From: Thiotrichales bacterium
Lineage (GTDB): Bacteria > Pseudomonadota > Gammaproteobacteria > SZUA-229
Assembly: GCA_020341835.1 (NCBI GenBank)
Contig: CP070838.1
Location: forward strand, 1,544,487 to 1,600,883
Direction: 5' to 3'
Length of the DNA: 56,397 nt
A program made the translations under genes and the position numbers. The notes beneath the pieces are model-generated. The model was not told the origin of the DNA and did not search any database. It saw only the letters and a program-made list of their open reading frames with translations. Position 1 is the stretch's first letter. Every line of letters starts with the position of its first letter. Below, in pieces: positions 36,227 through 54,180 of the stretch.

Positions 36227-38203
36227 TTATTTCGGCTTGAATCTTCGAACTGCACGTATGTATCGCTTGAGGAGCGCCTCGCTGTTATCGCAACTATAAC
36301 GCAAGCGTTCATAATCATCGGTTATCATTGCCAGCTCGCGCCGCTTGCTCGGCAAAAGCTGCATAACACGTGAAAGGAACTCCGTGGCACCTTCATTTGA
36401 CCTGTGCCGGATACCAACCTTCTCCAGCTTGCTGCAGAATTTTTCATAATATAACTTGATCTCGTCCCTGCGGCGTACCGGTTCCCGGTGAATCACCCAC
36501 CAGGCAACCAGGCTGCCGGCAACCGTCATCAACAACACCAGCCCCATCAGCAGATTGCTGCTGGTAACATTATTGAATCCGAGTAAACGGAGCAGTTCCT
36601 TCTGGCGGTCACTGTTAAACCCGACGATCCACTGGTTCCAGCTGTTACGGAAACTGTCCAGCATGTAACGGGCACGCTGAAAAACCACATTGTCTGAAAT
36701 CAGAATCGCAGGCAACAGATCGTGCTCGAGGCCGGCGTTTTCTATCCCGCGTTCTATCCGTGTTGGTGAAACCGCGGCTGTCGGGTCAACACGCACCCAG
36801 CCTTCATCTTCAAGCCACACTTCCGCCCAGGCATGTGCATCAGACTGGCGTACGATCATGTAATCGTCGAAGGGATGCATGGCACCGCCCTGATAACCCA
36901 CGACAACCCGTGACGGTATGCCCGCTGACCGCATCAGATACACGAAGGCACTGGCAAAATGCTCACAGAATCCACGGCGCGTGCTGAACAGGAAATCATC
37001 CATTGCATGCTCGCCCAGCAACGGTGGCGACAGGGTATAGGAAAACGCCTCGTTGCTGAAATATCTCAGCACATTGTTAATGTATGCATTACTATCCCGA
37101 TTCGATTCAATAAACAGCTTGCTGGCGAACTCTGCAGTATCCTGGTTCAGGCCTTCGGGCAGGGCGAGATTCTTGCGCCGCTCCGGCTCAAACAAACCGC
37201 CGTTTTCCGCACCGATATCAGACCGCAGCTGATAGTTCAGTACATCCGTCACCGGGCTGGCCGCGACCAGATGCATTTCCCGCGTGGCCAGCAGCGATCT
37301 GTCGTGCTGTATCGGCAGCTCGAGCGCATACAACCAATGCTGGTTGTGCGGTTCCAGCATCACCGTATAGCTGTATATTGTTTCAACAACATCTTCAGAA
37401 ACAATCAGCGGCCTGGCGAACGCAGGCGCATTCTCCATACGCCAGGTTCTGCCGTCATAGCTGGACAACGCAAGTCCGCGCCAGTACAAATCCGATCGCG
37501 GCGGCGGCTCGCTGTCGAATTGCACTCGAAACGCCACTTCGCCGGAAGCAATCAGGCGATTAATACTGCCGGGTGACATTTCTTCCGAAAGACCGGATGT
37601 CGCTGACCCGGCGTCTCTGGGCAAACCCCATAACGGGCCCGGCATGCGCGGAAACAGCACGAACAGGATCAACATCAACGGCACCGCCTGTGCAATCATG
37701 CGAAATGATTGATGGAGCCGCGCCTGTAATCGCATTGTTCCCAGGCGGTCACTGAACACAATCAGCAGGGATGTGAGATACACAACAACGACAAAAACAT
37801 GCGCTGCGATCAAAAGGCTCTGTGAATAGAAAAACTTGCTTGCGACCAGGAAAAATCCCATGAAGATAACAATTGCAATATCCCGGGTCGACTTCATTTC
37901 GAACAGCTTGAGAAAGGCGAGCAGCAGCAGCATGGCCGAACCCGGCAGTTGGCCGAGTATGGTGCCGAATGACAGCATTAACACCACTACCACCAGCACA
38001 GTCATTACAGCCAAAGCCCATCGACCAGGCCTTGCAGCCTTCCCGTTGATAATCAGCAATGCCCAGACGGTGAAAGCAGCAGTAAGCAGCAGCACCATGA
38101 CGGGCATATGCGGATACAGCGGCAGCGCCACAACGTGAATGCCCAGCAACAGCGGTGCGATAGGTTTGGTGAGCCTGTCTGCCGACAAAACGACTACCCC
38201 CAC
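36227..38203 (-). CDS. tgpA: TgpA-like transglutaminase-domain membrane protein (DUF3488 + transglutaminase core)
   Basis: 658 aa. About six N-terminal TM helices, then a catalytic region RRGFCEHFASAFVYLMRSAGIPSRVV..DAHAWAEVW (Cys-His-Asp triad context). Confidence 0.85.
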   Translation of the reverse strand: MGVVVLSADRLTKPIAPLLLGIHVVALPLYPHMPVMVLLLTAAFTVWALLIINGKAARPGRWALAVMTVLVVVVLMLSFGTILGQLPGSAMLLLLAFLKLFEMKSTRDIAIVIFMGFFLVASKFFYSQSLLIAAHVFVVVVYLTSLLIVFSDRLGTMRLQARLHQSFRMIAQAVPLMLILFVLFPRMPGPLWGLPRDAGSATSGLSEEMSPGSINRLIASGEVAFRVQFDSEPPPRSDLYWRGLALSSYDGRTWRMENAPAFARPLIVSEDVVETIYSYTVMLEPHNQHWLYALELPIQHDRSLLATREMHLVAASPVTDVLNYQLRSDIGAENGGLFEPERRKNLALPEGLNQDTAEFASKLFIESNRDSNAYINNVLRYFSNEAFSYTLSPPLLGEHAMDDFLFSTRRGFCEHFASAFVYLMRSAGIPSRVVVGYQGGAMHPFDDYMIVRQSDAHAWAEVWLEDEGWVRVDPTAAVSPTRIERGIENAGLEHDLLPAILISDNVVFQRARYMLDSFRNSWNQWIVGFNSDRQKELLRLLGFNNVTSSNLLMGLVLLMTVAGSLVAWWVIHREPVRRRDEIKLYYEKFCSKLEKVGIRHRSNEGATEFLSRVMQLLPSKRRELAMITDDYERLRYSCDNSEALLKRYIRAVRRFKPK

Positions 38204-38326
38204 CTGCAGCAGACCAGCGGAAAAGAATTCGTGCTCATTTTCACACTGGCAATTGCGAGCACCGGCAAACGTGGTGAATCGCTCACTGACAAACCGGCCT
38301 GCAACTGTTCTCGGACAGTATCCACT

Positions 38327-39334
38327 CTACTCCCTCCCGTACAGCGCCAGCGTCTTCAAACAATGCTGATAATGCCTGACGCCGTGGTCGGGACTGATCT
38401 CGACACCCGGCAGTCGCAAACCATAATGCCATTGCCCGGCCTCGGCATCGATCACCAGGCGCGCCATAATCGAAAGCCGCGCCTCTGTACCGCTGGCAGC
38501 GATCGCATTCCATTCTATCCACTGCATCTCCGGCTTGCCGCCGGTGAACTCCTTGGTGTGTAACTGGGCGGTTCGTGCAGCCGCCTTCCATGACACCCTG
38601 CGCCAGGAATCACCCGTCCGGTACTTGCGTAATCCTGCAAACTCCTCGATTCCATCCCCGTATAAATCGCTTTCACCATCGGAAACGGCGTCACTAAGCG
38701 GCAGCTCGGCAACCTTGACCGGCTTCGGATAGACAACACATTCCATGTTCAAATCGATCCACGTCCACGCCACGAACAAACCTGTAGGAAACTCTGTACT
38801 CAAGCGAAACCGGCCCGAGCGGAGCAAGCCGCGATGTTTCGCTTTTCTTTTGAAATGAAGCTGTCCGACACTTTCCGCTTTCACGTCGATGACTTAGTGC
38901 TCCTGGCCTTCCTGGCTGATTGCTATCGAGTACCGCGTCAGCTGATCACGGTTTTCGAGCTGAACGGTAAAGCTTGCGTTTTCACCGCTGAATACCGGCG
39001 AACTCCCCCCAGCACGCAGCTTCAATCCGGCGAGATTTCGCCAGGTCGCAAACATCGCGACATTACCAACACCAACAAGCAGAAATACCAGCACGAAGCC
39101 CAGACTCTTGCCGTAATTGACCGAGCCCAGCAGCAGAATAATAAGAAGCAAACAGAACAGAAGACCGATATTTGTCGGCAGGATATACACCCTGTTTTTA
39201 TCCAGCACGACCTCGCCATCGTAAGGCCCGCTGCGCCGTAACATAAAGTTGAACGCGGGATTACGCACAAAATCAGTCAGCCTTGTTCGAGAAACGAGTG
39301 GCAAGGATCCGCTCTTCAGGGAACAGGAACACAC
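38327..39334 (-). pseudogene. DUF58-family protein (MoxR partner) interrupted by a single in-frame TAA
   Basis: ORFs 38894-39334 (TM N-terminus) and 38327-38884 (DUF58 core EEFAGLRKYRTGDSWRRVSWKAAARTAQLHTKEF) are in the same frame. They are separated only by a TAA (38894-38896) plus three sense codons: ..QEGQEH*VIDVKAESV.. Confidence 0.7.
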
Positions 39335-40266
39335 GCGGCGATGAAATCAGCAGCACTCTGATGTTTGGTATCAAGATCGTCCGATGTTTTTACAAGCCGG
39401 TGATTTACCACAGCGGGCAACACTTCCTTGATATGTTCGGGCAGCACAAACTCCTTGCCATCGATCAATGCCAGAGCCCTGGCCGAGTTCAACAGCGCAA
39501 GGCCGCCGCGCGGAGACAGCCCGACCTCGAACATCGGTGAGCTGCGGGTGAACTCCAGCAACGCCTGCACATAATCGAGCAAAGCATCAGCCACGAAGAT
39601 ATCCGCTGCCTGCCTCTGGATGGAAGTCAGCTTGCTTGCATCCAGAACCGGCTTGATATGTTCAATCATGTCGCGCCGGTCCTCGCCCTGCAGTAATTCA
39701 CGCTCCGCCTCCTTGCCCGGGAAACCAAGGTGAAGACGCATCAGAAAACGGTCCAGTTGTGACTCCGGCAACGGGTATGTCCCGATTTGATGCACTGGAT
39801 TCTGCGTCGCGATGACAAAGAACGGTTGCGGCAGGTCGCGGGTCTCGCCTTCCACCGTCACCTGGAACTCTTCCATCGCTTCAAGCAATGCACTCTGGGT
39901 CTTGGGCGTTGCCCGATTGACCTCATCGGCAAGAATGAAATGTGAAAAAATCGGGCCCTGGTGAAATTCGAACAGCGCCCGTTCCCGATCGTAGACAGCA
40001 ACACCGAGTACGTCGGCCGGTAGCAGATCAGAAGTGAACTGAATGCGCTGGAAGTCGAGCCCCATGACCTGCGCAATGGCGTGCGCCAGCGTCGTTTTAC
40101 CGACACCCGGCAAATCCTCGATCAACAGGTGCCCTCGCGCGACCAGACAGGTGAGCGCCAGCCGTATCTGGTCATCCTTTCCGAGTATTATCCTGCCAAT
40201 TTGTTCTGCGGCGTGTTGCAGTATTGCGGTTGCAGCACTGCGCACCTTGGGATCGGTCGCTTGCAT
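39316..40266 (-). CDS. MoxR-family AAA+ ATPase
   Basis: 316 aa with GHLLIEDLPGVGKT (Walker A), ILADEVNRA (Walker B) and the typical MoxR C-terminus. Confidence 0.92.
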   Translation of the reverse strand: MQATDPKVRSAATAILQHAAEQIGRIILGKDDQIRLALTCLVARGHLLIEDLPGVGKTTLAHAIAQVMGLDFQRIQFTSDLLPADVLGVAVYDRERALFEFHQGPIFSHFILADEVNRATPKTQSALLEAMEEFQVTVEGETRDLPQPFFVIATQNPVHQIGTYPLPESQLDRFLMRLHLGFPGKEAERELLQGEDRRDMIEHIKPVLDASKLTSIQRQAADIFVADALLDYVQALLEFTRSSPMFEVGLSPRGGLALLNSARALALIDGKEFVLPEHIKEVLPAVVNHRLVKTSDDLDTKHQSAADFIAACVPVP

Positions 40267-40414: not shown

Positions 40415-42397
40415 CTAGAAAATACCAAAAAGCTTCTTTTCTTCCTTGTGTTTCCGCAGGATATCGACGATCGCGGACTTGTCGCCCAGCTCAGCCAGCG
40501 TAATCGCCTGTTCACGTTTATCATTGCGCAAGTCAATGTCTGCACCCGCATCCAGCAGCACCTTGACGGTTCCCGCGCTGTCGGCCAGCACCGCCAGAAT
40601 CAGCGGCGTATTGCCAACGCCATTTTTTCCGTTTACGTCAGCACCCTTGCTGATCAGCATGCCGACCGTGTCGGCATTGCCCTTGCTTGCAGCGAGCATC
40701 AATGGGGTATTGCCATCTTCGGCTGCCACATCAACCTCGATCCCTTTGGCTATCAACCGCGCCGCCACTGCAGGCTCTTCCCGGGCTGCCGCCTTATGCA
40801 ACAATGAAAATCCGTTTTTGTCGCGCCGGTTTATATAACGGTATTTTTTCAGTAACAGACCAACCAGATCCGCGCTGCCTGACTCAACCGCATACCACAG
40901 TGCATCATGCCCTGATTCATCCTTCAAACCGACTTCTCCGCCGGCGTTCAACAGGCGACCAACGGTTGATAACGGCATGCCGCTCGCCGCCATCATCATT
41001 TCACCCTTGCCGTCTATGAGCTTGTTGGTCGGCCTGGCACCTGCATCCAGCAGCATTTCTACGGTTTTCTCATGACCGCTCTCGATAGCATAAAACAGTG
41101 CGCTGCGTTTCTTGCTATCAACCGCAACGACATCGGCACCTGCATTCAGCAGCGCAACAACGACCTTGTCCTTACCGTTGTCACTGGCCCACATCAATGG
41201 GGATTTACCATTGCGGTCAGGCTTGTTTACATCAGCCCTGGCGGCAATAAGCTGATCCGTTATTTTGTCATGGCCCTGTATTGCCGCACGTGTCAGCGGT
41301 GTATGCCCTTCCCTGTCACGCTGGTTTGGATTTGCACCTTTTTCCAACAGCAAAGCCAGCACGTCGTCCTGACCACGCCATACCGCGATCATCAACGGGC
41401 TCCAGTTCTTGTATACATCTTTGGCACCGGTATTGATTGCCGCCAGTTTCTGCTTTGCCGTCAGCGTTTCCTTGCGCGCCACAGGCAGGCGGGCACCGTA
41501 TTTCTGTAACAGGCTAACGGTGGATTGATGTTTCCCCTTGGCAGCCAGCTCTATTGCATTTTCACCATTACGATTTTTGGTCGAATGTTTTGCCTTGCTT
41601 TTTAACAGCTCGTTGACAGTGTTTTTATGTCCCCTGGCGGATGCCAGCATCAACGCCGTATTACCATTCGCATCAATATTATTGAGACTGGCACCATAAC
41701 CAATCAACTCGCGTACGATCAGGGTTTCACCGAGGGAAGCCGCCAGCATCAACGGCCTGTCCCTGTAGGCATCAACCGCATTGGCATCGGCGCCGTTAGC
41801 CAGCAACAGACTCACCATATCCCCGTTTTTCCGGCTGATCGCCTCCATCAATACCGAACGATTGTACTCATCCCGGGCATTGACGTCAGCGCCCTTTTCC
41901 AGCAGTTTTTTCACCGCGGCCGCATCACCCCTGCTGACTGCTAGCAGTATCGCTTCGTCCGGCTTCATATCAGCAAAATTCAGAGCATCGCCTTTATCAC
42001 CGAGCAGACTCAATCGTTTGGTCGCGTTCCGGTAACCCTGGTCGGCAGCCGCCTTGTACCAGAACACCGCCTTCACCAGGTCTTTCTTGACACCGATACC
42101 TTCTTCATAGAGAACACCCAGGGAATACTGAGCCCGCTTGTACCCTTGCGTGGCGGATTTTTTCATCCAGTACGCTGCCTTTTTGCTGTCCTCACGTGTT
42201 CCCTGGCCATTGCGGTACATGACTGCCAGATGGTACTGCGCTTCCTTGTCCCCGTTTTTCGACAGCGGCTCCAGTATCTTCACCGCTTTGGTAAAGTCCC
42301 TGGCACGAATCGCCATTTTCGCATCTGTAAGCGTTGCGGCCTCAGCGATAAAAGCCAGCAGCAGTAGAATCAGGGGTAATAATCTGTATCGACGCAT
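40415..42397 (-). CDS. Secreted Sel1-repeat + ankyrin-repeat protein (about 15 ANK repeats)
   Basis: Signal peptide MRRYRLLPLILLLLAFIAEAA. Two to three Sel1 repeats (AQYHLAVMYRNGQG.., AQYSLGVLYEEGIG..). These are followed by about 15 units of the G-x-T/S-P/A-L-x-x-A..G-x-x-x-x-V-x-x-LL-x-x-GA-D-x-N type. Confidence 0.9.
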   Translation of the reverse strand: MRRYRLLPLILLLLAFIAEAATLTDAKMAIRARDFTKAVKILEPLSKNGDKEAQYHLAVMYRNGQGTREDSKKAAYWMKKSATQGYKRAQYSLGVLYEEGIGVKKDLVKAVFWYKAAADQGYRNATKRLSLLGDKGDALNFADMKPDEAILLAVSRGDAAAVKKLLEKGADVNARDEYNRSVLMEAISRKNGDMVSLLLANGADANAVDAYRDRPLMLAASLGETLIVRELIGYGASLNNIDANGNTALMLASARGHKNTVNELLKSKAKHSTKNRNGENAIELAAKGKHQSTVSLLQKYGARLPVARKETLTAKQKLAAINTGAKDVYKNWSPLMIAVWRGQDDVLALLLEKGANPNQRDREGHTPLTRAAIQGHDKITDQLIAARADVNKPDRNGKSPLMWASDNGKDKVVVALLNAGADVVAVDSKKRSALFYAIESGHEKTVEMLLDAGARPTNKLIDGKGEMMMAASGMPLSTVGRLLNAGGEVGLKDESGHDALWYAVESGSADLVGLLLKKYRYINRRDKNGFSLLHKAAAREEPAVAARLIAKGIEVDVAAEDGNTPLMLAASKGNADTVGMLISKGADVNGKNGVGNTPLILAVLADSAGTVKVLLDAGADIDLRNDKREQAITLAELGDKSAIVDILRKHKEEKKLFGIF

Positions 42398-43701
42398 TAT
42401 GCGGTTCCGTACTTTGTTTCTACTTCTATACCGATAGACTTGAGAAATGGTGTTGGCAGAATACCGCCGGCACAGACAATGACCGCGTTGTTATCAATCG
42501 TTATATCCTTGTCATTGGCATTGATCGTAACCTTGTCATCGGTAATCTCTTTTACATTTGAGCTCATCAGCACATTCATTCGCCCTGCCTTCTGCGCATT
42601 GGCCACCTTGACCCGGTTTTTCTCCTTGGCCCGGGAAAACGCTTCGCTGCGGTAAGACAGGGTTACGGTTGTACCGGATTCTTCCGCGATACTCACTGCC
42701 GCTTCGAGTGCGCTGTCACCACCGCCAACCACGAGGACATGCTGACCACGGTACTGCTCGGGGTCTATCAGGCGATAGACCACTTTGGTTTTGTTCTCAC
42801 CGGGTACGCCCAGCGTACGCGGCGTTCCACGGCGCCCGATAGCCAGTAACACTGCGCGGGATTTGTAGTTGTTTTGCGTGGTCTTTATCCTGAAACCCTT
42901 TCCATCAGCTTCGATATTCTCCACTCGCTCGTTATCGCTTATCACCAGGCCTGTCGAACTGATGACACCCTCCCAGTATTCCATCAGGGATTCCTTGGTG
43001 GTTTCGCGAAAACGCATCTTGCCCACCAGTGGCAGCTGCACCGGCGCGGTCATTACAATTTTCCCACGCGGATAATGCGATACCGTTCCGCCCACCGTCT
43101 CCTGCTCCAGGGTAGCGAACCTGAGCTTACGCGCCTTGGCTGCCAGCGATGCACCGATACCCGCGGGACCGGCACCGACGATAACAAGATCAAGCTGTTC
43201 TTTGCGCCCGATACCATCGAGTTTGCTGATCGAATCAACGGCCATCACTCCTTGCGTAACAGCGTTCCTGATCAACCCCATGCCCCCCAGTTCACCCGCG
43301 ATAAAGATACCCGGCACATTGGTTTGAAAGTCCTGACCAACGTGCGGAATATCGACGCCACGCTTCTCGGTACCGAACACCAGCTCGATGGCATCAAACG
43401 GACAGGCTTTTTTACAGGCGCCGTGACCTATACAGTGCGTGGGATTAACCAGGTGCGCCTTGCCATGAATCACTCCCAGAACCCCGTGGCCGTGTTCAGG
43501 GCAGGCCTTGACGCAACTCGCGCACCCAAGGCAGCGATTACGGTCAATGACAGGATGCAAGGATGCAGGTTCGGTCAGCCCGGATGCAACGGCTTCTTCC
43601 AGAACCTGTCGACTGGTGCGCTGCTTTTTCGTCCGCTTCCACAGGTAAATGGCGAGTATCAAAAACAGCGGCACGGAATAGAGCCACATCAACTGGGACA
43701 T
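42397..43701 (-). CDS. Membrane-anchored ferredoxin-domain / FAD- and NAD(P)-binding oxidoreductase (thioredoxin-reductase-like fold)
   Basis: N-terminal TM (LYSVPLFLILAIYLW). One canonical CLGCASCVKACP motif and one degenerate CIGHGACKKACP Fe-S motif. GxGxxG sites LVIVGAGPAGIGAS and VLVVGGGDSALEAA. Its TAA stop shares one base with the ATG of the ankyrin gene (TAATG). Confidence 0.85.
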   Translation of the reverse strand: MSQLMWLYSVPLFLILAIYLWKRTKKQRTSRQVLEEAVASGLTEPASLHPVIDRNRCLGCASCVKACPEHGHGVLGVIHGKAHLVNPTHCIGHGACKKACPFDAIELVFGTEKRGVDIPHVGQDFQTNVPGIFIAGELGGMGLIRNAVTQGVMAVDSISKLDGIGRKEQLDLVIVGAGPAGIGASLAAKARKLRFATLEQETVGGTVSHYPRGKIVMTAPVQLPLVGKMRFRETTKESLMEYWEGVISSTGLVISDNERVENIEADGKGFRIKTTQNNYKSRAVLLAIGRRGTPRTLGVPGENKTKVVYRLIDPEQYRGQHVLVVGGGDSALEAAVSIAEESGTTVTLSYRSEAFSRAKEKNRVKVANAQKAGRMNVLMSSNVKEITDDKVTINANDKDITIDNNAVIVCAGGILPTPFLKSIGIEVETKYGTA

Positions 43702-43819
43702 GTCGATAACTCCGCAACAAGCACACTGTCACTCAGGGAAAGTGCATATATGACTGGCATGATGAAATAAACTGCGTTAGAACTGGTGATTCTTTTGTAC
43801 ATGCAATATAGCAGAACTT

Positions 43820-43840
43820 GTGCAAAATTTTCCGACAAAT
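43820..43840. promoter_or_regulatory. Copy 1 of a 21-bp direct repeat in the divergent control region (candidate operator)
   Basis: gtgcaaaattttccgacaaat. 19 of 21 bases are identical to 43959-43979. A third partial copy, aattccgacaaac, lies at 43945-43957. Confidence 0.35.
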
Positions 43841-43958
43841 CAGCTGAATTCCCACGGAAAAACAGGGTAAACTAGAGCCTTCAAATGCGCACAAAAACTC
43901 CCATAAGGTATTGTTTTTAGCTATATCTCCTTGATATTGGAAACAATTCCGACAAACG

Positions 43959-43979
43959 GTGCAAAATTCTCCGACATTT
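43959..43979. promoter_or_regulatory. Copy 2 of the 21-bp direct repeat (candidate operator)
   Basis: gtgcaaaattctccgacattt, 139 bp downstream of copy 1 and about 95 bp upstream of the ATG at 44073. Confidence 0.35.
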
Positions 43980-44072
43980 TTATAGTGCTCTACTAGACTG
44001 AGCTTGGCAGATCGCTATAATTCGCATGGGAATATTTTACCAAAAAAATAACATTTGAAGGTACACCCTGGT

Positions 44073-44996
44073 ATGAGCAACGTAAACACTCTTGAGGGCA
44101 GCCAGGCTACACACCAGTTAAAGGATGACTCCTCCGAACGGTCATCAAACGGGCTAGTCAAGGCAATAAAAAAACCAGTCGCATTGACACACGAGCATCT
44201 GTTCACTATCAGTGTCGTCGCGATTTTGATATATGGCTGGAGCCGCCGGGATGATAACTACATCAGCGCCGAGAACGGTGCCGGATATATCCTGGGGATC
44301 GTCGGCGGCAGCCTGATGCTGCTGCTGATCCTTTATCCGATCAGCAAAAGAACCGAGTTACTCAAGCGGCTGATACCGATGCGCTTCTGGTTCGGCATGC
44401 ACATGCTGTTTGGCATCATTGGTCCGGTAATGATTCTGTTTCATTCTAATTTTCATATTGGCTCGATGAACAGCACTGTTGCACTGCTCAGCATGTTACT
44501 GGTGGCGTTCAGCGGACTGATTGGCCGCTATATCTATACCCGTATTCATCACGGCCTGTACGGCAAACGCATCACCCTGGGGGAACTCAAGCAGGAAGCA
44601 GAAGCACAGCACTCAGAGCTGCTACGCATTTACAGGCTGGACAAAAAGCTGAATCAGCGACAGACCTCGATGGAAACCAGGGCATTACAGAATTATACAG
44701 GCGTGACCAGAACCCTGATCCATGGCCTGTTGTTGTCGATTGATTCACGTCGCCTGCGCTCCAGAACCAGAAAACTGTTAAAGGCAGCCTGCAATCGGGA
44801 CGCGCTGAAAATGACACCCAACAAGGCTGCTGTGATCATGGGATTCGTTGACCGATACTCGGCTGCACTGCACAAGATCGTCGTTTTCCGGATCTACGAA
44901 CGACTGTTTTCGTTCTGGCATGTCCTGCATCTGCCGCTTTTCATCATGATGATTATCACCGCGATCATTCATATTTTTGCGGTACACATGTACTGA
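44073..44996 (+). CDS. His-rich five-TM inner-membrane protein, candidate di-haem-b transmembrane electron carrier
   Basis: The track ORF starts at TTG 44055; the ATG at 44073 is preferred. Two TM helices each carry an H-x13-H pair (GMHMLFGIIGPVMILFH and HLPLFIMMIITAIIH). It is the first gene of the cytochrome operon. Confidence 0.7.
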   Translation: MSNVNTLEGSQATHQLKDDSSERSSNGLVKAIKKPVALTHEHLFTISVVAILIYGWSRRDDNYISAENGAGYILGIVGGSLMLLLILYPISKRTELLKRLIPMRFWFGMHMLFGIIGPVMILFHSNFHIGSMNSTVALLSMLLVAFSGLIGRYIYTRIHHGLYGKRITLGELKQEAEAQHSELLRIYRLDKKLNQRQTSMETRALQNYTGVTRTLIHGLLLSIDSRRLRSRTRKLLKAACNRDALKMTPNKAAVIMGFVDRYSAALHKIVVFRIYERLFSFWHVLHLPLFIMMIITAIIHIFAVHMY

Positions 44997-45021
44997 TCGA
45001 GACCGTGCCTGACCACCTGAC

Positions 45022-46620
45022 ATGCGATCACATTTACATGGCTGTTGCCGGCTCATTCTCACACTCTCGATCATGCTCATTGCACTCGACAGCCATGCAG
45101 ACAACCTGAAGTCCCTGTTGATGCCGGGCCCCGTTATCAAGGCCCATGAAAAATACGAACAGCAATGTGATAAATGCCACGACACATCGGACAAGTCCAG
45201 GCAGGGCCGCTTGTGCATGGATTGCCACGACCATAAAAACATCCTCGAGGATATCAACAAGAAATCAGGCTTTCATGGCCGCCTGCCTGGACCACAGAAA
45301 ACCGACTGCAAACACTGCCATACCGAACACGAAGGCAGAAATGCAAAAGTCATCCTGCTGGACCCTTCAACATTCGACCACTCGAAAACCGATTTCGAGT
45401 TAAAGGGTATACACGCAAAAACCAACTGCAAGGCCTGCCACAAGCCTGAGAAAAAATACCACGAAGCCCCACAGGACTGTTATAGCTGCCACGAGAAGGT
45501 GGATGTACATGAGGGCGAACACGGCAAGAAATGCGGCGACTGCCATTCACCAAAGAGCTGGAAGCAGAACGCGTTTGATCATGACGAAAAAACCGATTTC
45601 CCGTTAAAAGGCGCACACAAGGAGACACTGTGTTCCTCCTGTCATCTGAATCAGAAATTCAAGGACACGAACAAAAACTGCATCGGCTGCCACAAGATCC
45701 AGGACATCCACCAGGGCGGCTACGGCACGAAGTGCGAGCTCTGCCACACATCGGAAAAATGGGACGAGATACATTTTGATCACGGCAAGGAAACCGAATT
45801 CAAACTGCTGGGTAAACACAAGCAGGCCTCATGTAACAGCTGTCATACTGCAGAAACCCTGAAAAAGAACAGGAAAACGAAAAAGAAACTGCCCAGGGAC
45901 TGCTACGGTTGCCACAAGCATGATGACAGCCATAAAGGCAGAAACGGGGAGAAATGCCAGGACTGCCATAATCCGAAATCATGGCAAAAGTACAAATTTG
46001 ACCATGACCGGAAAACCGAGTTTCCACTGCGCGGCAAGCATAAAGATTTGAACTGCTCCTTCTGCCACAAGGGTGACATCGAAAAAGACAAGCCGAAAAA
46101 AGACTGCATCGGCTGTCACAAAAAAGATGATGTCCATCATGGCAAACAGGGCGAGCAGTGCGACAACTGCCATAACGAAAAAGGCTGGCACGACAAGATC
46201 TTTTTCGACCACGACCTGTCAAGTTTTCCACTGATTGGCATGCATGCCGCGATCCAGTGTGAAGAATGTCATCTGACATCCGTCTACAGATCAACCGACA
46301 GCGAATGCAATGACTGCCATGCGGGTGATGATGTACACAAAACACGCCTCGGTACCGACTGCGAAACCTGCCACAACCCGAACTCCTGGGAAAACTGGCT
46401 TTTTGATCATGACCAGGCGACACAGTTTGAAATCGACGGCGCCCACGAGGACCTGGGTTGTTATGACTGCCACAGGACAAAATCAAAGGGAAAACTCAAG
46501 GCATCTCGCGACTGCATTTCATGCCATCGCAGTCAGGATGTCCACAGTCGACAGTTCGGCAGGCAGTGCGGAAATTGTCACAGCACCACAAGCTTTAAAG
46601 ACGTCAACCTAAAACGATGA
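45022..46620 (+). CDS. Periplasmic 21-haem cytochrome c built from seven trihaem c7-like units
   Basis: Signal peptide ..LIALDSHA/DN. I counted exactly 21 CxxCH motifs, arranged as seven repeats of the form FDH..T.F.L.G.H....CxxCH / CxxCH..D.H.G..G / CxxCH....W. Confidence 0.92.
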   Translation: MRSHLHGCCRLILTLSIMLIALDSHADNLKSLLMPGPVIKAHEKYEQQCDKCHDTSDKSRQGRLCMDCHDHKNILEDINKKSGFHGRLPGPQKTDCKHCHTEHEGRNAKVILLDPSTFDHSKTDFELKGIHAKTNCKACHKPEKKYHEAPQDCYSCHEKVDVHEGEHGKKCGDCHSPKSWKQNAFDHDEKTDFPLKGAHKETLCSSCHLNQKFKDTNKNCIGCHKIQDIHQGGYGTKCELCHTSEKWDEIHFDHGKETEFKLLGKHKQASCNSCHTAETLKKNRKTKKKLPRDCYGCHKHDDSHKGRNGEKCQDCHNPKSWQKYKFDHDRKTEFPLRGKHKDLNCSFCHKGDIEKDKPKKDCIGCHKKDDVHHGKQGEQCDNCHNEKGWHDKIFFDHDLSSFPLIGMHAAIQCEECHLTSVYRSTDSECNDCHAGDDVHKTRLGTDCETCHNPNSWENWLFDHDQATQFEIDGAHEDLGCYDCHRTKSKGKLKASRDCISCHRSQDVHSRQFGRQCGNCHSTTSFKDVNLKR

Positions 46621-47927
46621 GCGGTACGCCACTGATGAGCCAGAACACCAGAACAAGAATCATCGGCTTCACGATCACAGCGCTATGCCTGCTGGTAGTG
46701 TCCAGTCTGATCATACTGACCAATTCGGCAAGCTATGCCGCTGACGAGACCAAGGGTTTTGACCATTTCACCACCGGCTTTCCGCTGAACGGCAAGCACC
46801 AGTACATCGACTGCTCCAGCTGCCACATCGGTGGCCAGTTCGCCGGCACGCCGCTGGAATGCGTGTTGTGCCATAACGACAGTCGCGCACCCGGAAAGAA
46901 TCCAGACCATCTTCCCAGCAGCAACATCTGTGATGACTGTCATACAGAAGACAGTTGGCGGGGAGCGCGATATGACCACAGCAGTATCATCGGCCCCTGC
47001 ACGAACTGCCACAACAACGTTGTTGCACTCGGCAAGTCACCGTCGCATATTCTGTCAACAGCACAATGCGAAGACTGTCATAATACAATCACTTTCACCC
47101 GCGTCGGCCGGGTCGACCACGTCTCAGTTATCGGCAGCTGCAGCTCATGTCATAACGGCGTGATATCCATCGGCAAACACCCGGGGCACATACAGACCAC
47201 ATCTGAATGCGATATCTGCCATAACACGATCACATGGCGCGGCGCCGGCTTTGACCATTCCACGGTTACGCAGCCCTGTGCGACCTGCCATAACGGCGTG
47301 ACTTCAACAGGCAAACATCCTGGACACATACAGACCACGCTGGATTGCGAGTTCTGTCACAATACAACGTCATGGCTGAACGCGCGTTTTGATCATGCCG
47401 CAGTGACGCAACCCTGTTCCGCCTGCCACAACGGTGTCACCGCAACCGGCAAACCGGCGAACCATTTGCCAACCACAGGTGAATGCAACAGCTGTCACTT
47501 TACCAACTCCTGGACCAACATCAGCTTCGATCACTCGACCGTGACCGGTCTGTGTTTGAGCTGCCACAACGGCTCGATCTCGACCGGCAAATCGACAACG
47601 CATTTTGTCACGACACTGGATTGTGACCGCTGCCACAGTACAGCAACCTGGATCCCATTGATCCTGTTCAGGCACGACTCACCTGACTATCCGGGCGACC
47701 ACCGCACGACGGTACTTTGTGTGGACTGCCACCGTACGAACAACCAGGTGATCGCATGGCCGTTCCCGGCCTATCAGCCTGACTGCGCCGGTTGTCATGC
47801 CGACGATTATCTACCGGCACCTCATGACAACCAGACGGTCGATGTGCTGCGCGATTGCGCCGGCAGCTGCCACATCGGCGGAGTCACCCGTAGCGCCGAG
47901 CATCGTACCAGCGCCGCCGGCTGGTAA
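46617..47927 (+). CDS. Multihaem cytochrome c with 15 CxxCH plus one CxxxCH (CAGSCH), built from about 46-aa dihaem tandem repeats
   Basis: ATGA overlap with the upstream gene. Signal peptide ending SASYA/AD. Motifs counted by eye. Six units of the form CxxCHNGxxxxGKxxxHxxTxxxCxxCHxxxxWxxxxFDHxxVxxx span aa 82-360. Confidence 0.9.
   Translation: MSGTPLMSQNTRTRIIGFTITALCLLVVSSLIILTNSASYAADETKGFDHFTTGFPLNGKHQYIDCSSCHIGGQFAGTPLECVLCHNDSRAPGKNPDHLPSSNICDDCHTEDSWRGARYDHSSIIGPCTNCHNNVVALGKSPSHILSTAQCEDCHNTITFTRVGRVDHVSVIGSCSSCHNGVISIGKHPGHIQTTSECDICHNTITWRGAGFDHSTVTQPCATCHNGVTSTGKHPGHIQTTLDCEFCHNTTSWLNARFDHAAVTQPCSACHNGVTATGKPANHLPTTGECNSCHFTNSWTNISFDHSTVTGLCLSCHNGSISTGKSTTHFVTTLDCDRCHSTATWIPLILFRHDSPDYPGDHRTTVLCVDCHRTNNQVIAWPFPAYQPDCAGCHADDYLPAPHDNQTVDVLRDCAGSCHIGGVTRSAEHRTSAAGW
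46860..47696 (+). repeat. Six in-frame tandem coding repeats (period about 138 nt) inside the 15/16-haem cytochrome gene
   Basis: Units 3 and 4 are about two-thirds identical at protein level by eye (CSSCHNGVISIGKHPGHIQTTSECDICHNT.. versus CATCHNGVTSTGKHPGHIQTTLDCEFCHNT..). Confidence 0.8.
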
Positions 47928-48009
47928 ACGATGTAACACAACGAGCATGAGAAGCAGGAACCGACTGACCTGAGTTAAGCATCTGAGCCAATAATAAGAA
48001 TAACTAACA

Positions 48010-50064
48010 ATGCCTTCAGCCACGATACGCCAGCAGCTTGTGACAGCCGTAGTCAGTACGGTTGTGTTCCTGTTTCTGCTAATCGTTGCTGTCGAATCTC
48101 ATGCCGCGAGCAAATCATCTGAATCCTTCGTGATCGTGCTTGCATCAGCACCCGGCACGAACCTGAACTGGAAGCCGAAAAAAAACCCCCTGTTCAAGGG
48201 CCGCACCATCTATGTCACCCGGGCGACCGTAAAAGGCAAACCCTGGGAGAGGCTGAACCTGGGCTTCTTCAGCAGCCGCCAGAAAGCCGTGCTGGTGATG
48301 AACGATGTTCAGCACCAGTACCCTGGTGCCTGGCTCAGGGAGGTTACAGCTGACGAAGTCCAAAGGGCCAGCGGCAAGGCACTGGTCGCTCCCACTGCGA
48401 AGCCGGCACCAAAATCTTCAACAGCCATCGCCAATACCTCGACATTAACGGACGAGCAACTCGATAGCCTGATGCAGCGCGCAAAAAATGATTTCAAGAG
48501 CAACAACTATGCGCAGGCAATTCGTTATCTGAAAGCAATTATCGCTGCAGGCGATCACAAATATTCAATGGAAGCACTGGAACTGCTTGGGCTGTCACGA
48601 CAGCGCAAGGGGCAGAATGCCCATGCCGCCAGGATTTATCGCGAATACCTCGAAAAATATCCCGAAAGTGAAGGCGCTGTGCGTGTCTCACAACGCCTGA
48701 CCGGACTGATGACAGCCACCCAGGAACCCAGGGAAAAAATTCATATGGAAGCAGAAGCGAAGCCGGTGTCCAGCACATCCGTGTTCGGCAGCTTTTCTCA
48801 GTATTACCGCAGGGACAGGGCCGAGGCGGATGATCTGGATGAATCACTGACCACGCTGTCGCAGCTGATTACATTTCTGGATCTGACAACCCTGCACCAG
48901 TCAGCGCGATTTGACCACCGTTTTCAGTTCGTCGCCGATGATACCTATGATTTTCTGGAAGAGGAAGAACAGAACTCGTTCCGGTTTATTGAAATGTATT
49001 ACGACCTGGGTTCGAGAATGACCGGCACATCGGGCAGGATCGGCAGGCAGGCTTTACGCCTTGGCGGCATCCTGAGAAGGTTCGACGGTATCTCGGCAGG
49101 TTACCAGTTCACACCGGGCATGCGCCTCAATCTGCTCGGCGGTTACCCGGTAGATATTGACAACAATACCTCGATCAATGAGCACAAAAAGTTTTATGGC
49201 GTGACCTTTGAAACCGGCACCTTCCTGCAGCACTGGGACATGAATCTGTTTTACTTCGACCAGAGCATCGATGGCATCGATGACGCCAGCAATGTCGGCA
49301 CAGAAGTCCGTTACAACGACAGGACCACTTCTCTGTTCGGCATGGTTGATTACAACCTGGACTACAAGGAACTGAACATCCTCCAGTTCAATGCCAACCT
49401 GCTGTTCGACCGGGGCCGAGCGGCCTACATGAACGCCTTCATGCGCAAAGCACCGGTGCTTTCCACCAGCAACGCACTGATCGGGCAAACGGAAGAAACG
49501 ATCGAGGAACTGCTGCAAACGCTGAGCATCGAGCAGGTCTACCAGCTGGCACGCGATCGCACCGCCGACAGCGCCACTATCACCATAGGCGGCTCGTCGC
49601 CGATCAGTGCGAAGTTCCAGACCAATGCGGATATCACTTTTTCCAAGGTTACCGGCACCCCGGCTTCGGGCGGTGTACCGGAAACACCCTCGACCGGTAC
49701 CGATTACTTCATCAGCGCACAGATCGTCGGTAACGACCTGATACTGAAACGAGATACCGGTGTGCTCGGTATACGCTATCTCGACAGCAGACTGTCAAAC
49801 ACCTGGGCGTTTATTGCCAATACCCGAATTCCGATATCACGCGACTGGCGCCTGAACCCGCGTCTGCAGTATGACATACGCAAACTTACCGACGGCCGCT
49901 CTCAGGACAAGCTCAGATTGCTGGTAAGAACCGATTACAGGTACTTGAACAAGATTCGATTTGATCTCGAACTCGGCTACGAGAACACCAGTGATGAACT
50001 CAACGGCCAATCACTCGGCACCAATAATTTCTTCCTGATGGCTGGCTACCGCTGGGATTTTTGA
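48010..50064 (+). CDS. Outer-membrane beta-barrel protein with an N-terminal SPOR-like domain and a TPR segment
   Basis: Signal peptide ..AVESHA/AS. SPOR-like segment FVIVLASAP..WERLNLGFFSSRQKAVLVMNDVQHQYPGAWLREV. TPR-like segment NNYAQAIRYLKAI..ARIYREYLEKYPESEGA. The C-terminal roughly 400 aa have an alternating-hydrophobic pattern and end in the OMP beta-signal FFLMAGYRWDF. Confidence 0.75.
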   Translation: MPSATIRQQLVTAVVSTVVFLFLLIVAVESHAASKSSESFVIVLASAPGTNLNWKPKKNPLFKGRTIYVTRATVKGKPWERLNLGFFSSRQKAVLVMNDVQHQYPGAWLREVTADEVQRASGKALVAPTAKPAPKSSTAIANTSTLTDEQLDSLMQRAKNDFKSNNYAQAIRYLKAIIAAGDHKYSMEALELLGLSRQRKGQNAHAARIYREYLEKYPESEGAVRVSQRLTGLMTATQEPREKIHMEAEAKPVSSTSVFGSFSQYYRRDRAEADDLDESLTTLSQLITFLDLTTLHQSARFDHRFQFVADDTYDFLEEEEQNSFRFIEMYYDLGSRMTGTSGRIGRQALRLGGILRRFDGISAGYQFTPGMRLNLLGGYPVDIDNNTSINEHKKFYGVTFETGTFLQHWDMNLFYFDQSIDGIDDASNVGTEVRYNDRTTSLFGMVDYNLDYKELNILQFNANLLFDRGRAAYMNAFMRKAPVLSTSNALIGQTEETIEELLQTLSIEQVYQLARDRTADSATITIGGSSPISAKFQTNADITFSKVTGTPASGGVPETPSTGTDYFISAQIVGNDLILKRDTGVLGIRYLDSRLSNTWAFIANTRIPISRDWRLNPRLQYDIRKLTDGRSQDKLRLLVRTDYRYLNKIRFDLELGYENTSDELNGQSLGTNNFFLMAGYRWDF

Positions 50065-53563: not shown

Positions 53564-54160
53564 ATGCAAACATCAACGATTGTGGTCCTGGTCATCATCG
53601 CGGTGATCATTCTTTATATCATCAATATCTTCAACAGCCTTGTCAGTTTGCGCAATCGTTACAAGAACGCTTTCGCTCAGATCGAGGTTCAGCTCAAACG
53701 CCGCTACGATTTGATCCCGAACCTGATCGAGACCGCCAAGGGCTATATGAAGCATGAACGGGAAACACTGGATTCGGTGATTAAAGCCCGCAATGCTGCC
53801 GCCAGCGGACTCGCGGCCGCTGCAGCGGATCCTGGCAATGCCGCCGCGATCAGGGAACTGATCGGCGCTGAAGACGCGCTCACCGGTGCGCTGAGCAGAT
53901 TCAATGTTGTGATGGAAGCTTACCCGGATCTCAAGGCCAACCAGAACATGATGCAATTGAGCGAAGAGCTGACTACCACCGAGAACAAGGTGGCGTTTGC
54001 CCGTCAGGCCTTCAACGATTCGGTCATGGAGTACAACACCTACAAACAGTCGTTCCCACCGGTCATCTTTGCTGCAACCTTCGGGCACGCGCAGGATGCC
54101 ACTCTGCTCGAATTCGAAGACAGCGCGGCTATCCAGGAAGCACCCAGGGTTTCCTTCTGA
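53564..54160 (+). CDS. LemA-family protein
   Basis: 198 aa. N-terminal TM, then [47 protein letters not shown], a canonical LemA sequence. Confidence 0.9.
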
Positions 54161-54180
54161 GGGTACATTAAAGCGAATTT

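Follow-up and report, generated by a model that had tools for sequence, protein, structure and literature searches.

The window, a 56,397-nucleotide stretch of the genome of a Thiotrichales bacterium, contains a PCC3-type porin–multihaem-cytochrome cluster that lies within a conserved six-gene module; published descriptions give four genes. What the analysis establishes is the gene content, the motifs, the repeat architecture, the domain composition and the linkage across phyla. The module consists of two divergent operons, operon 1 (+) encoding an inner-membrane protein (IMP), a 21-haem cytochrome, a 16-site cytochrome and an outer-membrane protein (OMP), and operon 2 (−) encoding a flavoprotein and an ankyrin protein, laid out as follows.

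40415–42397, − strand: secreted Sel1/ankyrin-repeat protein, 660 aa (Pfam, signal peptide, gene adjacency)
42397–43701, − strand: membrane-anchored FeS-flavoprotein, 434 aa (Pfam, structure matches, conserved Cys/His)
43702–44072, no strand: divergent control region, 371 bp (direct repeats and a sigma-70-like site)
44073–44996, + strand: PCC3-type IMP, 307 aa (motifs, TM segments)
45022–46620, + strand: periplasmic 21-haem cytochrome c (cyt1), 532 aa (CxxCH count, Cytochrome_C7)
46617–47927, + strand: T/S/G-rich 16-site cytochrome c, 436 aa (motifs, composition, Cytochrome_C7)
48010–50064, + strand: OMP, 684 aa (AlphaFold2 model, TPR/SPOR, β-signal)

The five open reading frames from the flavoprotein to the OMP, described in a first-pass annotation, were all recovered at these positions, together with the ATGA overlap at 46617–46620 between the two cytochrome genes. 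The conserved unit reaches further left than that annotation proposed and includes the Sel1/ankyrin gene, whose ATG overlaps the flavoprotein stop codon; this gene and the SPOR-TPR domains of the OMP had both been overlooked. The divergent spacer, given earlier as 353 bp, measures 371 bp with the IMP start at the ATG at 44073, which is favoured by homolog alignment; the shorter value fits an upstream TTG at 44055. Three direct copies of GTGCAAAATTyTCCGACA lie in this spacer (43820–43837, 43937–43954 and 43959–43976), and TTCCGACA-type boxes recur in the same orientation in the equivalent spacers of loci L001 (three copies), L003, L004, L006–L009, L036 and L058. A sigma-70-like site at 43994–44021 (+) is not above chance, with one found and 0.9 expected from shuffles.

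The IMP has five TM helices, with WxxxHx13H in TM3 and TM5 and SGxxG in TM4, and a 120-aa basic helical loop predicted to be cytoplasmic. Neither the four His nor the two Trp nor the SG varies among 28 close and 53 diverse homologs. Loop charges indicate an N-in topology that places one His pair near each membrane face, and the protein is predicted to bind two haem b. Neither Pfam nor NCBIfam assigned it a family, the only matches being sub-threshold (DUF4405, Ferric_reduct and Ni_hydr_CYTB), and a profile search of the PDB returned no matches. The AlphaFold model is weak (pLDDT 67), and its fold search gave no significant neighbor, with NOX5-TM at rank 28 (E 3.9). The family is large, with 2701 clusters at 50% identity.

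The two cytochromes carry 21 and 15 CxxCH sites plus one CxxxCH, the count given in the first-pass annotation, and no CxxCH-type motif occurs in the other proteins of the gene set. Cyt1, with 25 aa per haem, consists of c7-like tri-haem units of ~67 aa, repeated seven times in tandem, whose alignment shows three conserved distal His per unit; it matches Pfam Cytochrome_C7 in six stretches (3.5e-27) and would be long enough to bridge the periplasm. The second cytochrome combines 15 CxxCH with CAGSCH in alternating 23-aa one-haem units (one haem per ~23 aa; Cytochrome_C7, 1.7e-19), and its orthologs range from 7 to 47 haems. It corresponds to the 'extracellular' cytochrome of PCC3, with a predicted surface location. 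The signal peptides proposed for both cytochromes agree with N-terminal hydrophobic stretches, found also on the OMP, and no lipobox is present at the N-termini of the cytochromes or the OMP.

The OMP comprises, in order, a signal peptide, a divergent SPOR domain (~39–123), TPR repeats (~148–237) and a β-barrel (~254–681) that ends in ...FFLMAGYRWDF; the β-signal noted earlier is thus genuine, and a GYRWDF-type end is kept in orthologs. TPR_6 was found in 30 of 34 family members and SPOR in 14. The AlphaFold2 model (pLDDT 77.5) has about 22 strands and a helical insert at 485–516. A fold search returned generic barrels only (TM ≤ 0.27), with MtrB at rank 10 (TM 0.25). A polysaccharide-export barrel, the outcome against which the first-pass annotation had weighed its reading, was considered and rejected, given about 22 strands and matches to generic barrels only. 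The PCC3 porin of Sideroxydans lithotrophicus ES-1 is annotated 'Sporulation domain-containing'.

PCC3 was defined as a four-gene cluster with a quinone-pool model (He et al. 2017, PMC5566968; Hoover et al. 2023, PMC10734462), with examples in ES-1 (Slit_0867–0870 and Slit_1446–1449), Leptothrix cholodnii SP-6 and tubeworm endosymbionts (PMC5566968, PMC10734462). Judged by published motifs and descriptions and not by direct alignment to the reference proteins, the window cluster has every sequence-level feature of PCC3 (He et al. 2017, PMC5566968). The resemblance, pointed out in the first-pass annotation, extends to the four core genes, the 5-TM IMP with two WX3HX13H motifs and SGXXG, the 21-haem periplasmic cytochrome (in PCC3 its repeats measure ~66 aa, at about 26 aa per haem) and the T/S-rich outer cytochrome, whose period is ~23 aa and whose haem number varies. 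The Riftia-symbiont example shares both the seven ~67-aa repeats and the 23-aa outer-cytochrome period, the L. cholodnii porin has a 22-strand barrel like the OMP, and the ES-1 locus combines a SPOR-annotated porin with an adjoining pyridine-nucleotide oxidoreductase gene, as here. The window cluster differs from published PCC3 in its FeS-flavoprotein gene, present in >90% of related loci, in its Sel1/ankyrin gene, present in relatives except ES-1, and in the porin SPOR-TPR domains, which the cited PCC3 papers do not discuss. That literature, to mid-2026, still terms PCC3 functionally unverified and offers transcriptomes and proteomes only, in line with the earlier statement that no experimental characterization was known.

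The flavoprotein was correctly described as a minus-strand, TM-anchored ferredoxin/FAD/NAD(P) oxidoreductase: it combines a TM helix at the N-terminus with a ferredoxin domain of the 2x[4Fe-4S] type (Fer4_10, 2e-11) and a Pyr_redox_3 domain (8e-45) with the FAD and NAD(P)H glycine motifs GAGPAG and GGGDSA. The ferredoxin domain contains one Cys4 and one Cys3His site; all 54 orthologs share C57, C60, C63, C67, C90, C96 and C100, and 53 of them keep H93. The nearest solved structures are YpdA/Bdr 7a7b (5e-25), TrxR and TrxR-type FNR. Because the FAD and NAD(P)H domain is of the TrxR/YpdA type but lacks the redox-active cysteine, electrons probably leave through the fused ferredoxin domain. Basic loops in the IMP, together with a K/R cluster past the flavoprotein TM helix, place the flavoprotein and the 120-aa IMP loop together on the cytoplasmic side.

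Co-occurrence in other genomes, on which the first-pass annotation had staked its reading, was observed widely: some 140 related loci carry this gene set, so the arrangement is far beyond chance. In 104 of 106 loci the IMP gene stands immediately before the cyt1 gene. Of the 99 informative loci, those whose sequence extends 2 kb or more upstream of the IMP gene, 92 have a flavoprotein gene linked to it, and these span Gammaproteobacteria, Alphaproteobacteria, Nitrospirota and Nitrospinaceae. This linkage persists through four different gene arrangements, including loci L044, L051 and L074, in which all six genes lie on a single strand; in alphaproteobacterial loci, ccmF, ccmG, ccmH and ccmI sit between the flavoprotein and IMP genes. 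The cluster also occurs in heterotrophic Paracoccaceae. The flavoprotein is the best conserved protein of the set, with a median identity of 65–70% to the window protein versus 41–53% for the IMP. In ES-1, the neighbor of the PCC3 porin (Slit_0866), whose orthology to the flavoprotein is judged by annotation only, is a pyridine-nucleotide-disulfide oxidoreductase, and its product was detected by proteomics. No flavoprotein gene adjoins ES-1 cluster 2 (Slit_1446–1449) or lies within 10 kb on either side in L055, and no IMP–flavoprotein fusion was found among long representatives.

The sixth gene encodes a protein with two Sel1 and about 15 ankyrin repeats (Ank_2, 6e-97; Sel1, 2e-21) and, in the window protein and its orthologs, an N-terminal signal peptide. 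Of the 83 loci that leave room for it, 79 have this gene immediately after the flavoprotein gene and in the same orientation, and the distant loci L044, L050 and L055 retain an identical Sel1+Ank architecture; no ankyrin gene is found beside Slit_0866 in ES-1. Cyt1 orthologs have 21 (43 loci), 18 (8) or 27 (1) haems, and the ankyrin protein changes in length with them: 494–513 aa with 18 haems (n = 8), 641–685 aa with 21 (n = 59) and 961 aa with 27 (n = 1). These length classes do not overlap, and the relation covers about three independent lineages, with a single member in the 27-haem class.

Three known systems offer points of comparison. MtrCAB, MtoAB and PioAB follow the same logic of a β-barrel sheathing a multihaem protein of the periplasm, to which a second one on the outer surface may be added, and share bis-His haem chains with the window cluster. 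They carry 10 and 10 haems versus 21 and 16 here, where the periplasmic cytochrome is long enough to dispense with a soluble shuttle and the inner-membrane partner resembles neither CymA nor ImoA. The earlier claim that MtrA-like decahaem and lipoprotein cytochromes are missing holds by family searches and the lipobox check: an MtrA/DmsE-family assignment was rejected at 44.5 bits against a cut-off of 192, and the window cluster contains neither an MtrB/PioB-family match nor a lipoprotein MtrC. The polymerized c7 'nanowire' cytochromes of Geobacter (GSU1996 type; TIGR04257) string tandem tri-haem domains into a linear haem chain. Cyt1 shares such c7-like domains but has seven units instead of four, all apparently bis-His, and its gene is embedded in a porin/IMP operon.

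In NADPH oxidase and other ferric-reductase-domain (FRD) systems, such as E. coli MsrQ-Fre, a cytoplasmic NAD(P)H flavoprotein feeds a two-haem-b membrane protein. Two His pairs on two helices holding two stacked haem b, as predicted for the IMP, and export of electrons to the periplasmic side, as proposed here, are common to both. The IMP, by contrast, matches the FRD family significantly neither in sequence nor in fold, and has five TM helices instead of six; the flavoprotein is a TrxR/YpdA two-dinucleotide enzyme with a fused 2x FeS ferredoxin instead of an FNR-type domain, and the acceptor would be a 21-haem wire in place of O2, Fe(III) chelates or MsrP.

We give about an even chance to the reading in which the six-gene module is a PCC3 conduit fed outward by a split, NOX-like (MsrQ-Fre-like) transmembrane electron input made of flavoprotein and IMP. 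Electrons would pass from NAD(P)H through FAD, two FeS centers, and the cytoplasmic-side and periplasmic-side haem b to the 21 c-haems, and from there cross the outer membrane to reach the 16-site cytochrome and an acceptor outside the cell. The SPOR-TPR-anchored barrel would enclose the two cytochromes where they meet, and the ankyrin protein may run alongside the periplasmic haem wire and scaffold or sheathe it. Such a path from NAD(P)H to the wire would bypass the quinone pool and make the flow outward. Haem b binding, protein contacts, NAD(P)H specificity, outer-membrane crossing, flow direction and acceptor are all inferred here. Bioenergetics favors the outward direction: Fe(II)-range donors could pass electrons inward to NAD(P)+ only uphill, against the membrane potential, and outward transfer is downhill. 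So does expression in ES-1, where PCC3 genes are down-regulated, not induced, on Fe(II). Against it, an outward NAD(P)H-fed flow would dissipate energy, and many hosts are lithotrophs, for which electron uptake is the favored idea; the missing flavoprotein genes at L055 and ES-1 cluster 2, and the failure to find an IMP–flavoprotein fusion among long representatives, count against the flavoprotein input, the weak IMP model with its insignificant fold and family matches against haem b binding, and the missing ankyrin gene beside Slit_0866 against the ankyrin protein as a module partner.

The published model, put forward by He et al. 2017 (PMC5566968) and kept in later papers, instead has the conduit take up electrons from Fe(II), minerals or other donors, with the IMP acting as a cytochrome b would and delivering them to the quinone pool, and the flavoprotein and ankyrin protein as accessory or loosely related. 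Many hosts oxidize Fe(II), sulfur or nitrite, paired HX13H motifs are also found in quinone-reactive cytochromes b, and ES-1 cluster 2 and L055, which lack a flavoprotein neighbor, fit this view. We nonetheless consider it unlikely: ES-1 PCC3 genes are down-regulated on Fe(II) and their proteins are constitutive or undetected on magnetite, the IMP shows no supporting signs of a quinone site, heterotrophic Paracoccaceae carry the cluster too, and the model leaves unexplained why the FeS-flavoprotein gene is the best conserved and most tightly linked.

Two further explanations appear quite improbable, each to the same degree. The flavoprotein and IMP could maintain apocytochrome cysteines or haem iron in the reduced state during attachment of 37 haems, with the ankyrin protein as an assembly chaperone and the conduit joined to the respiratory chain otherwise. 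The interposed ccm genes, the very high CxxCH load and the frequent use of repeat proteins as chaperones speak for this, but ordinary Ccm/DsbD systems suffice for other multihaem proteins, the constant position of the IMP gene before the 21-haem gene fits a redox partner, and the stoichiometric scaling of ankyrin length with haem-unit number points to a structural partner more than to a catalytic chaperone. The cytochromes could also form a periplasmic capacitor, redox buffer or oxidant-detoxifying store that never crosses the outer membrane, the SPOR-TPR barrel serving as an anchor or as an unrelated pore for export or secretion. A capacitor role was earlier proposed for PCC3 haems, the location of the 16-site cytochrome rests on prediction, and the barrel lacks specific MtrB similarity and could be plugged by its helical insert; polysaccharide exporters include TPR–barrel fusions. 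Yet the barrel has about 22 strands against 16–18 in PgaA, BcsC and AlgE, PelBC and AlgE score no higher than other barrels in the fold search, and the OMP gene is kept with the cytochromes across phyla, even if relocated. The outer cytochrome, T/S-rich and strongly length-variable, has features typical of surface proteins.

A cytoplasmic NAD(P)H entry point, the most speculative idea of the first-pass annotation, thus gains comparative support from its linkage across phyla and several rearrangements. The flavoprotein and the ankyrin-repeat protein are unreported partners of PCC3, absent from its four-gene definition, and their almost constant company with the conduit suggests that cytoplasmic reducing power feeds the haem wire.

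The five open reading frames described in the first-pass annotation were found at their claimed coordinates, and the module contains a sixth gene, a 660-aa open reading frame whose start codon overlaps the stop codon of the flavoprotein gene.

40415-42397 (-), ankyrin protein, with Sel1 and ankyrin repeats
42397-43701 (-), flavoprotein
43820-43837, direct repeat GTGCAAAATTyTCCGACA in the divergent spacer
43937-43954, direct repeat, same orientation
43959-43976, direct repeat, same orientation
44073-44996 (+), IMP, inner-membrane protein
45022-46620 (+), cyt1, 21-haem cytochrome of 532 aa
46617-47927 (+), cyt2, 16-site cytochrome of 436 aa
48010-50064 (+), OMP, outer-membrane protein of 684 aa

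The haem-binding sites are as first counted, with 21 CxxCH in cyt1 and 15 CxxCH plus one CxxxCH in cyt2, and the ATGA overlap between the two cytochrome genes is real. A hydrophobic, signal-like N-terminal segment is present on cyt1, cyt2, and OMP. Neither cytochrome has a lipobox, in line with the earlier view that the locus encodes no lipoprotein cytochrome, and the OMP C-terminus ...LMAGYRWDF was confirmed and is kept in orthologs. The sole numerical correction concerns the divergent spacer, which measures 371 bp and not 353 bp, because homolog alignment backs the ATG at 44073 as the IMP start. Promoter and terminator scans performed no better than on shuffled sequence. Among the related loci compared with the window (L001-L142), the closest relatives carry TTCCGACA-type boxes in the same orientation in equivalent spacers (three in L001; also L003, L004, L006-L009, L036, and L058). 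The repeat boxes are probably the binding site of a regulator.

The porin-cytochrome c cluster type PCC3 was defined purely from genomes (He et al. 2017, PMC5566968): an outer-membrane β-barrel, an inner-membrane protein of ~300 aa, and two large multihaem cytochromes c are encoded together. The window has this gene composition, in an order that recurs in related loci. The PCC3 inner-membrane protein is described as having five transmembrane helices, with WX3HX13H on TM3 and TM5 and SGXXG on TM4 (PMC5566968); IMP has exactly these motifs, at residues 112, 153, and 288 of its 313-aa form, and five hydrophobic segments. All four His, both Trp, and the SG are invariant in alignments of 28 close and 53 diverse homologs. 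Loop charges of +4 and +14 on the predicted inside loops and about 0 on the others indicate an N-in, C-out topology. Residues H110 and H286 are predicted to lie near the cytoplasmic face and H124 and H300 near the periplasmic face, with a 120-aa helical loop predicted to be cytoplasmic. This geometry is that of a two-haem transmembrane wire with putative haem binding.

As in di-haem cytochromes b and NOX enzymes, IMP has two His pairs ~13 residues apart on two transmembrane helices, one pair per membrane face. Unlike ferric-reductase/NOX proteins (PF01794) and other di-haem cytochromes b, it lacks a significant profile or fold match. Specifically, the window protein has no Pfam match at E <= 0.1 and no NCBIfam match, and a profile search of PDB sequences found none. 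Its AlphaFold2 model is weak (pLDDT 67), and a fold search of the PDB with this model returned nothing significant (NOX5-TM at E 3.9), so a NOX or cytochrome-b fold is not demonstrable. Sub-threshold Pfam matches among the 53 diverse members went to DUF4405 (16 members, best E 0.008), Ferric_reduct (2, best 0.021), and Ni_hydr_CYTB (2, best 0.042). The IMP family comprises 2701 clusters at 50% identity (E <= 1e-3). A search of its long representatives for IMP-flavoprotein (Rosetta-stone) fusions found none, only TPR, SPOR, or unannotated extensions.

Cyt1 is a tandem array of seven tri-haem units of ~67 aa, in which three additional His per unit are conserved, and its 25.3 aa per haem agrees with the ~21-haem periplasmic repeat cytochrome with an aa:haem ratio near 26 that typifies PCC3. 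The Riftia-symbiont PCC3 cytochrome likewise has 21 haems in seven ~66-aa repeats, at 26 aa per haem (He et al. 2017). The second PCC3 cytochrome is described as T/S/A/G-rich and low-complexity, with one haem per short repeat, and is predicted to be extracellular (He et al. 2017). Cyt2 resembles its Riftia-symbiont counterpart in being T/S/G-rich (T 11.7%, S 9.2%, G 7.8%) with short one-haem repeats, here alternating units of 23 aa. Its haem number varies freely among orthologs, from 7 to 47 CxxCH, with most counts odd. Composition, IMP motifs, and cytochrome repeat architecture all match the published descriptions, bearing out the resemblance to PCC3 noted at first pass; the original finding is real, was rightly interpreted, and adds one more example of this predicted type. 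The locus differs from MtrCAB, MtoAB, and PioAB in having no MtrA/DmsE-family decahaem, as had been held; TIGR03508 scores of 44.5 bits (cyt2) and 15.3 bits (cyt1) fall far below the cut-off of 192.2.

The AlphaFold2 model of OMP (pLDDT 77.5) is a barrel of about 22 strands; 22 strands were predicted for the PCC3 porin of L. cholodnii (He et al. 2017). The barrel is preceded by a SPOR domain of divergent sequence and by a short TPR region with 2-3 TPR-like hairpins; among 34 family members TPR_6 was found in 30 and SPOR in 14. A homolog in a siboglinid endosymbiont MAG is 57% identical. Unlike MtrB/PioB, which have 26-28 strands, OMP has no Pfam match to that family, and its TM-score against MtrB (6r2q_B) is 0.25, no better than against ushers, TonB-dependent receptors, LptD, or porins. 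A polysaccharide exporter of the PgaA, BcsC, or PelB/AlgK-AlgE kind (16-18 strands, long TPR array) was rejected on strand count, the 2-3 hairpins, and fold scores, PelBC (TMq 0.16) and AlgE (0.20) fitting no better than generic barrels. For a barrel of 22 strands, the standard n-strand formula gives a backbone diameter near 4 nm. TonB-dependent receptors have a barrel of that size with a 15-18 kDa plug inside, and thus, on geometric grounds, a slim haem chain could pass through OMP.

Across loci L060-L142, bigger OMPs (range about 570 to 1120 aa) tend to go with bigger outer cytochromes (e.g. L062 12614-19573, L063, L066). One gammaproteobacterial locus has an extra 1099-aa cytochrome with 36 CxxCH directly 3' of the OMP gene (L022, 11539-14838, +). 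Additional outer cytochromes beside PCC3 porins are reported from some Leptothrix genomes (PMC13386937).

The product of the minus-strand gene is built as first read: it has a transmembrane helix at the N-terminus, a ferredoxin domain for two clusters, and a flavin domain of the Pyr_redox_3 family (Pfam E 8e-45). A K/R cluster after the helix places the protein body in the cytoplasm. Among solved structures, the best matches to the flavin domain are YpdA/Bdr (7a7b, 5e-25), thioredoxin reductases, and ferredoxin-NADP reductases of the TrxR type; the domain carries the motifs GAGPAG (FAD) and GGGDSA (NAD(P)H). Unlike YpdA/Bdr and thioredoxin reductase, it has no redox-active Cys or CxxC, though both dinucleotide folds are present, and it scores 160 against the YpdA family TIGR04018, whose cut-off is 340. 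No catalytic Cys is conserved in the flavin domain, the only Cys outside the ferredoxin domain being the variable C410; the flavoprotein is therefore not a disulfide reductase. The ferredoxin domain displays the sites C57-x2-C-x2-C-x3-CP and C90-x2-H93-x2-C-x3-CP, with all seven Cys present in 54/54 orthologs and His93 in 53/54. [NiFe]-hydrogenases, which pass their electrons to a cytochrome b, offer a known case of a His-ligated [4Fe-4S] cluster placed where electrons leave.

We compared the open reading frames of all related loci (59 from genomes by IMP profile, three by exact-protein look-up, and 80 from metagenomes) with the window proteins. The cyt1 gene lies directly 3' of the IMP gene in 104 of 106 loci. 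The flavoprotein gene is present in 92 of the 99 loci with at least 2 kb of sequence upstream of the IMP gene. Five of the seven exceptions are short contigs; in L069 the partner ankyrin gene stands at the very end of the available sequence, and only in L055 is the flavoprotein gene truly missing within 10 kb on either side. The gene set proposed at first pass recurs across phyla, with hosts among Gammaproteobacteria (many labelled Thiotrichaceae), Paracoccaceae, Hyphomicrobium, Nitrospirota, and Nitrospinaceae. The flavoprotein-IMP linkage is kept through four layouts: the flavoprotein gene divergent from and adjacent to the IMP gene (83 loci), divergent with ccmFGHI inserted (Alphaproteobacteria), every gene on one strand (L044, L051, L074), or the flavoprotein gene 3' of the OMP gene (L075, L094, L096). 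The flavoprotein is also better conserved than any other protein of the module, with a median identity to the window protein of 65-70% versus 41-53% for IMP. In the alphaproteobacterial loci L042, L047, L050, L052, and L056, genes for ccmF, a ccmG-like protein, ccmH, and ccmI occupy about 5.4-9.7 kb (locus coordinates) between the flavoprotein and IMP genes; there the OMP gene is upstream, and the 18-haem gene is not followed by a second cytochrome gene.

Genes common only to the closest relatives were, for that reason, left out of the module. These are the MoxR/DUF58/transglutaminase genes upstream, and a methyltransferase gene and LemA/M48 genes downstream.

36227-40266 (-), MoxR AAA+ ATPase, DUF58, and TgpA-like transglutaminase genes, directly adjoining the module
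38327-39334 (-), DUF58 gene, with an in-frame TAA at 38894-38896 (...QEGQEH*VIDVK...)
53564-56103 (+), LemA-family gene, then a gene for a 640-aa M48-peptidase-like membrane protein (family names by sequence reading)

The MoxR-DUF58-TgpA genes are probably unrelated neighbours, since only six close relatives have them. DUF58 is one intact open reading frame of about 325 aa in L004, L006, L007, L009, L029, and L036, and its interruption in the window points to a pseudogene or else to an error in sequencing. The LemA and M48-like pair is 77-94% identical in L002, L005, and L006.

In the ankyrin protein, a signal peptide is joined by two repeats of the Sel1 type and some 15 of the ankyrin type. 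Of the 83 loci that leave room for it, 79 have its ortholog directly 3' of the flavoprotein gene; it travels with that gene through every rearrangement, and the Sel1-ankyrin architecture is kept in the most distant loci. Cyt1 haem numbers in the genome loci are all multiples of three (21 in 43 loci, 18 in eight, and 27 in one), and the ankyrin protein, counted from its signal peptide, falls into length classes that follow them.

Length of the ankyrin protein by cyt1 haem number
18-haem cyt1: 494-513 aa, 8 loci
21-haem cyt1: 641-685 aa, 59 loci
27-haem cyt1: 961 aa, 1 locus

These length classes do not overlap, though they are phylogenetically non-independent and the 27-haem class has n=1. Each tri-haem unit corresponds to an increment of roughly 150-165 aa, or 4.5-5 ankyrin repeats, and within the 21-haem class the relation is kept even at only ~30% ankyrin identity. 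In contrast, the haem number of the outer cytochrome ranges freely (7 to 47). The relation is a strong hint, not proof, that an ankyrin solenoid may run along the haem wire. In the paper library searched, the papers listed on multihaem, porin, and EET systems do not mention ankyrin.

In papers as late as mid-2026, PCC3 is still a four-gene cluster, "functionally unverified" or "uncharacterized", and a 2026 peat preprint mentions neither PCC3 nor flavoproteins, NADH, FAD, tetratricopeptides, or the inner membrane. The cluster in the Methylobacter bioanode paper is MtoAB-like and not PCC3. Sideroxydans lithotrophicus ES-1 has two PCC3 clusters, and our comparison with it rests on annotation lines in a proteomics supplement. 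The porin of cluster 1, Slit_0867, appears in UniProt as "Sporulation domain-containing protein". Beside it lies Slit_0866, a pyridine-nucleotide-disulfide oxidoreductase by annotation, detected as protein in ES-1; its placement reproduces the layout of L096, downstream of OMP, and by that annotation it is a putative ortholog of the flavoprotein. No ankyrin gene is next to Slit_0866, Slit_0865 being a Na+/H+ exchanger, and the genes flanking cluster 2 (Slit_1446-1449) are unrelated. The ES-1 PCC3 genes are down-regulated on Fe(II), and their proteins are constitutive or undetected on magnetite.

The best-supported reading, to which we give about an even chance, is that six components together conduct electrons across the envelope, with a split NOX-like input at the inner end. 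Electrons would pass from NAD(P)H to FAD, two FeS clusters, and two haems b, and from there to the 21 c-haems of cyt1 and the barrel with its 16-site outer cytochrome. Thermodynamics and expression in ES-1 both favour outward flow: reducing NAD(P)+ with electrons brought in from Fe(II)-range donors would be uphill and opposed by the membrane potential, and PCC3 is not induced by Fe(II) in ES-1. The published model of PCC3, quinone-coupled electron uptake, shares the four-gene core with the window; given the flavoprotein linkage and the ES-1 expression, we consider it unlikely. Two further proposals are very improbable: that the flavoprotein-IMP pair serves cytochrome maturation, and that the cytochromes are a purely periplasmic capacitor.

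A bolder form of the outward conduit, doubtful and put here only tentatively, takes PCC3 as a trans-envelope bacterial "NADPH oxidase" and not an iron-oxidation device, with the ankyrin solenoid as a molecular ruler or insulating sheath. Cytoplasmic NAD(P)H would discharge through the FeS-flavoprotein, the membrane protein with its two haems b, and a 21-haem wire spanning the periplasm, around which the co-scaled solenoid would lie, to extracellular acceptors such as O2 (yielding superoxide), Mn or Fe oxides, or humics. Extracellular, NAD(P)H-stimulated superoxide production is widespread and so far unexplained in marine heterotrophs. If true, the "NADPH oxidase" proposal would provide a molecular basis for this activity and for indirect Mn(II) oxidation in marine heterotrophs such as roseobacters, and the first repeat-protein sheath on a haem wire.

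For the PCC3 family, the analysis adds two unreported conserved partners, the flavoprotein and the ankyrin protein, making a module of six genes instead of four, together with the relation between haem number and ankyrin length and a revised, testable model. The flavoprotein, of all partners of IMP the best conserved and the most tightly linked to it, shifts that model from quinone-coupled uptake to a pyridine-nucleotide-coupled path, probably outward. PCC3 clusters are widespread, and genome surveys routinely count them as putative iron oxidases; if the pyridine-nucleotide model is true, inferences of "iron oxidation potential" from PCC3 markers would need revision.
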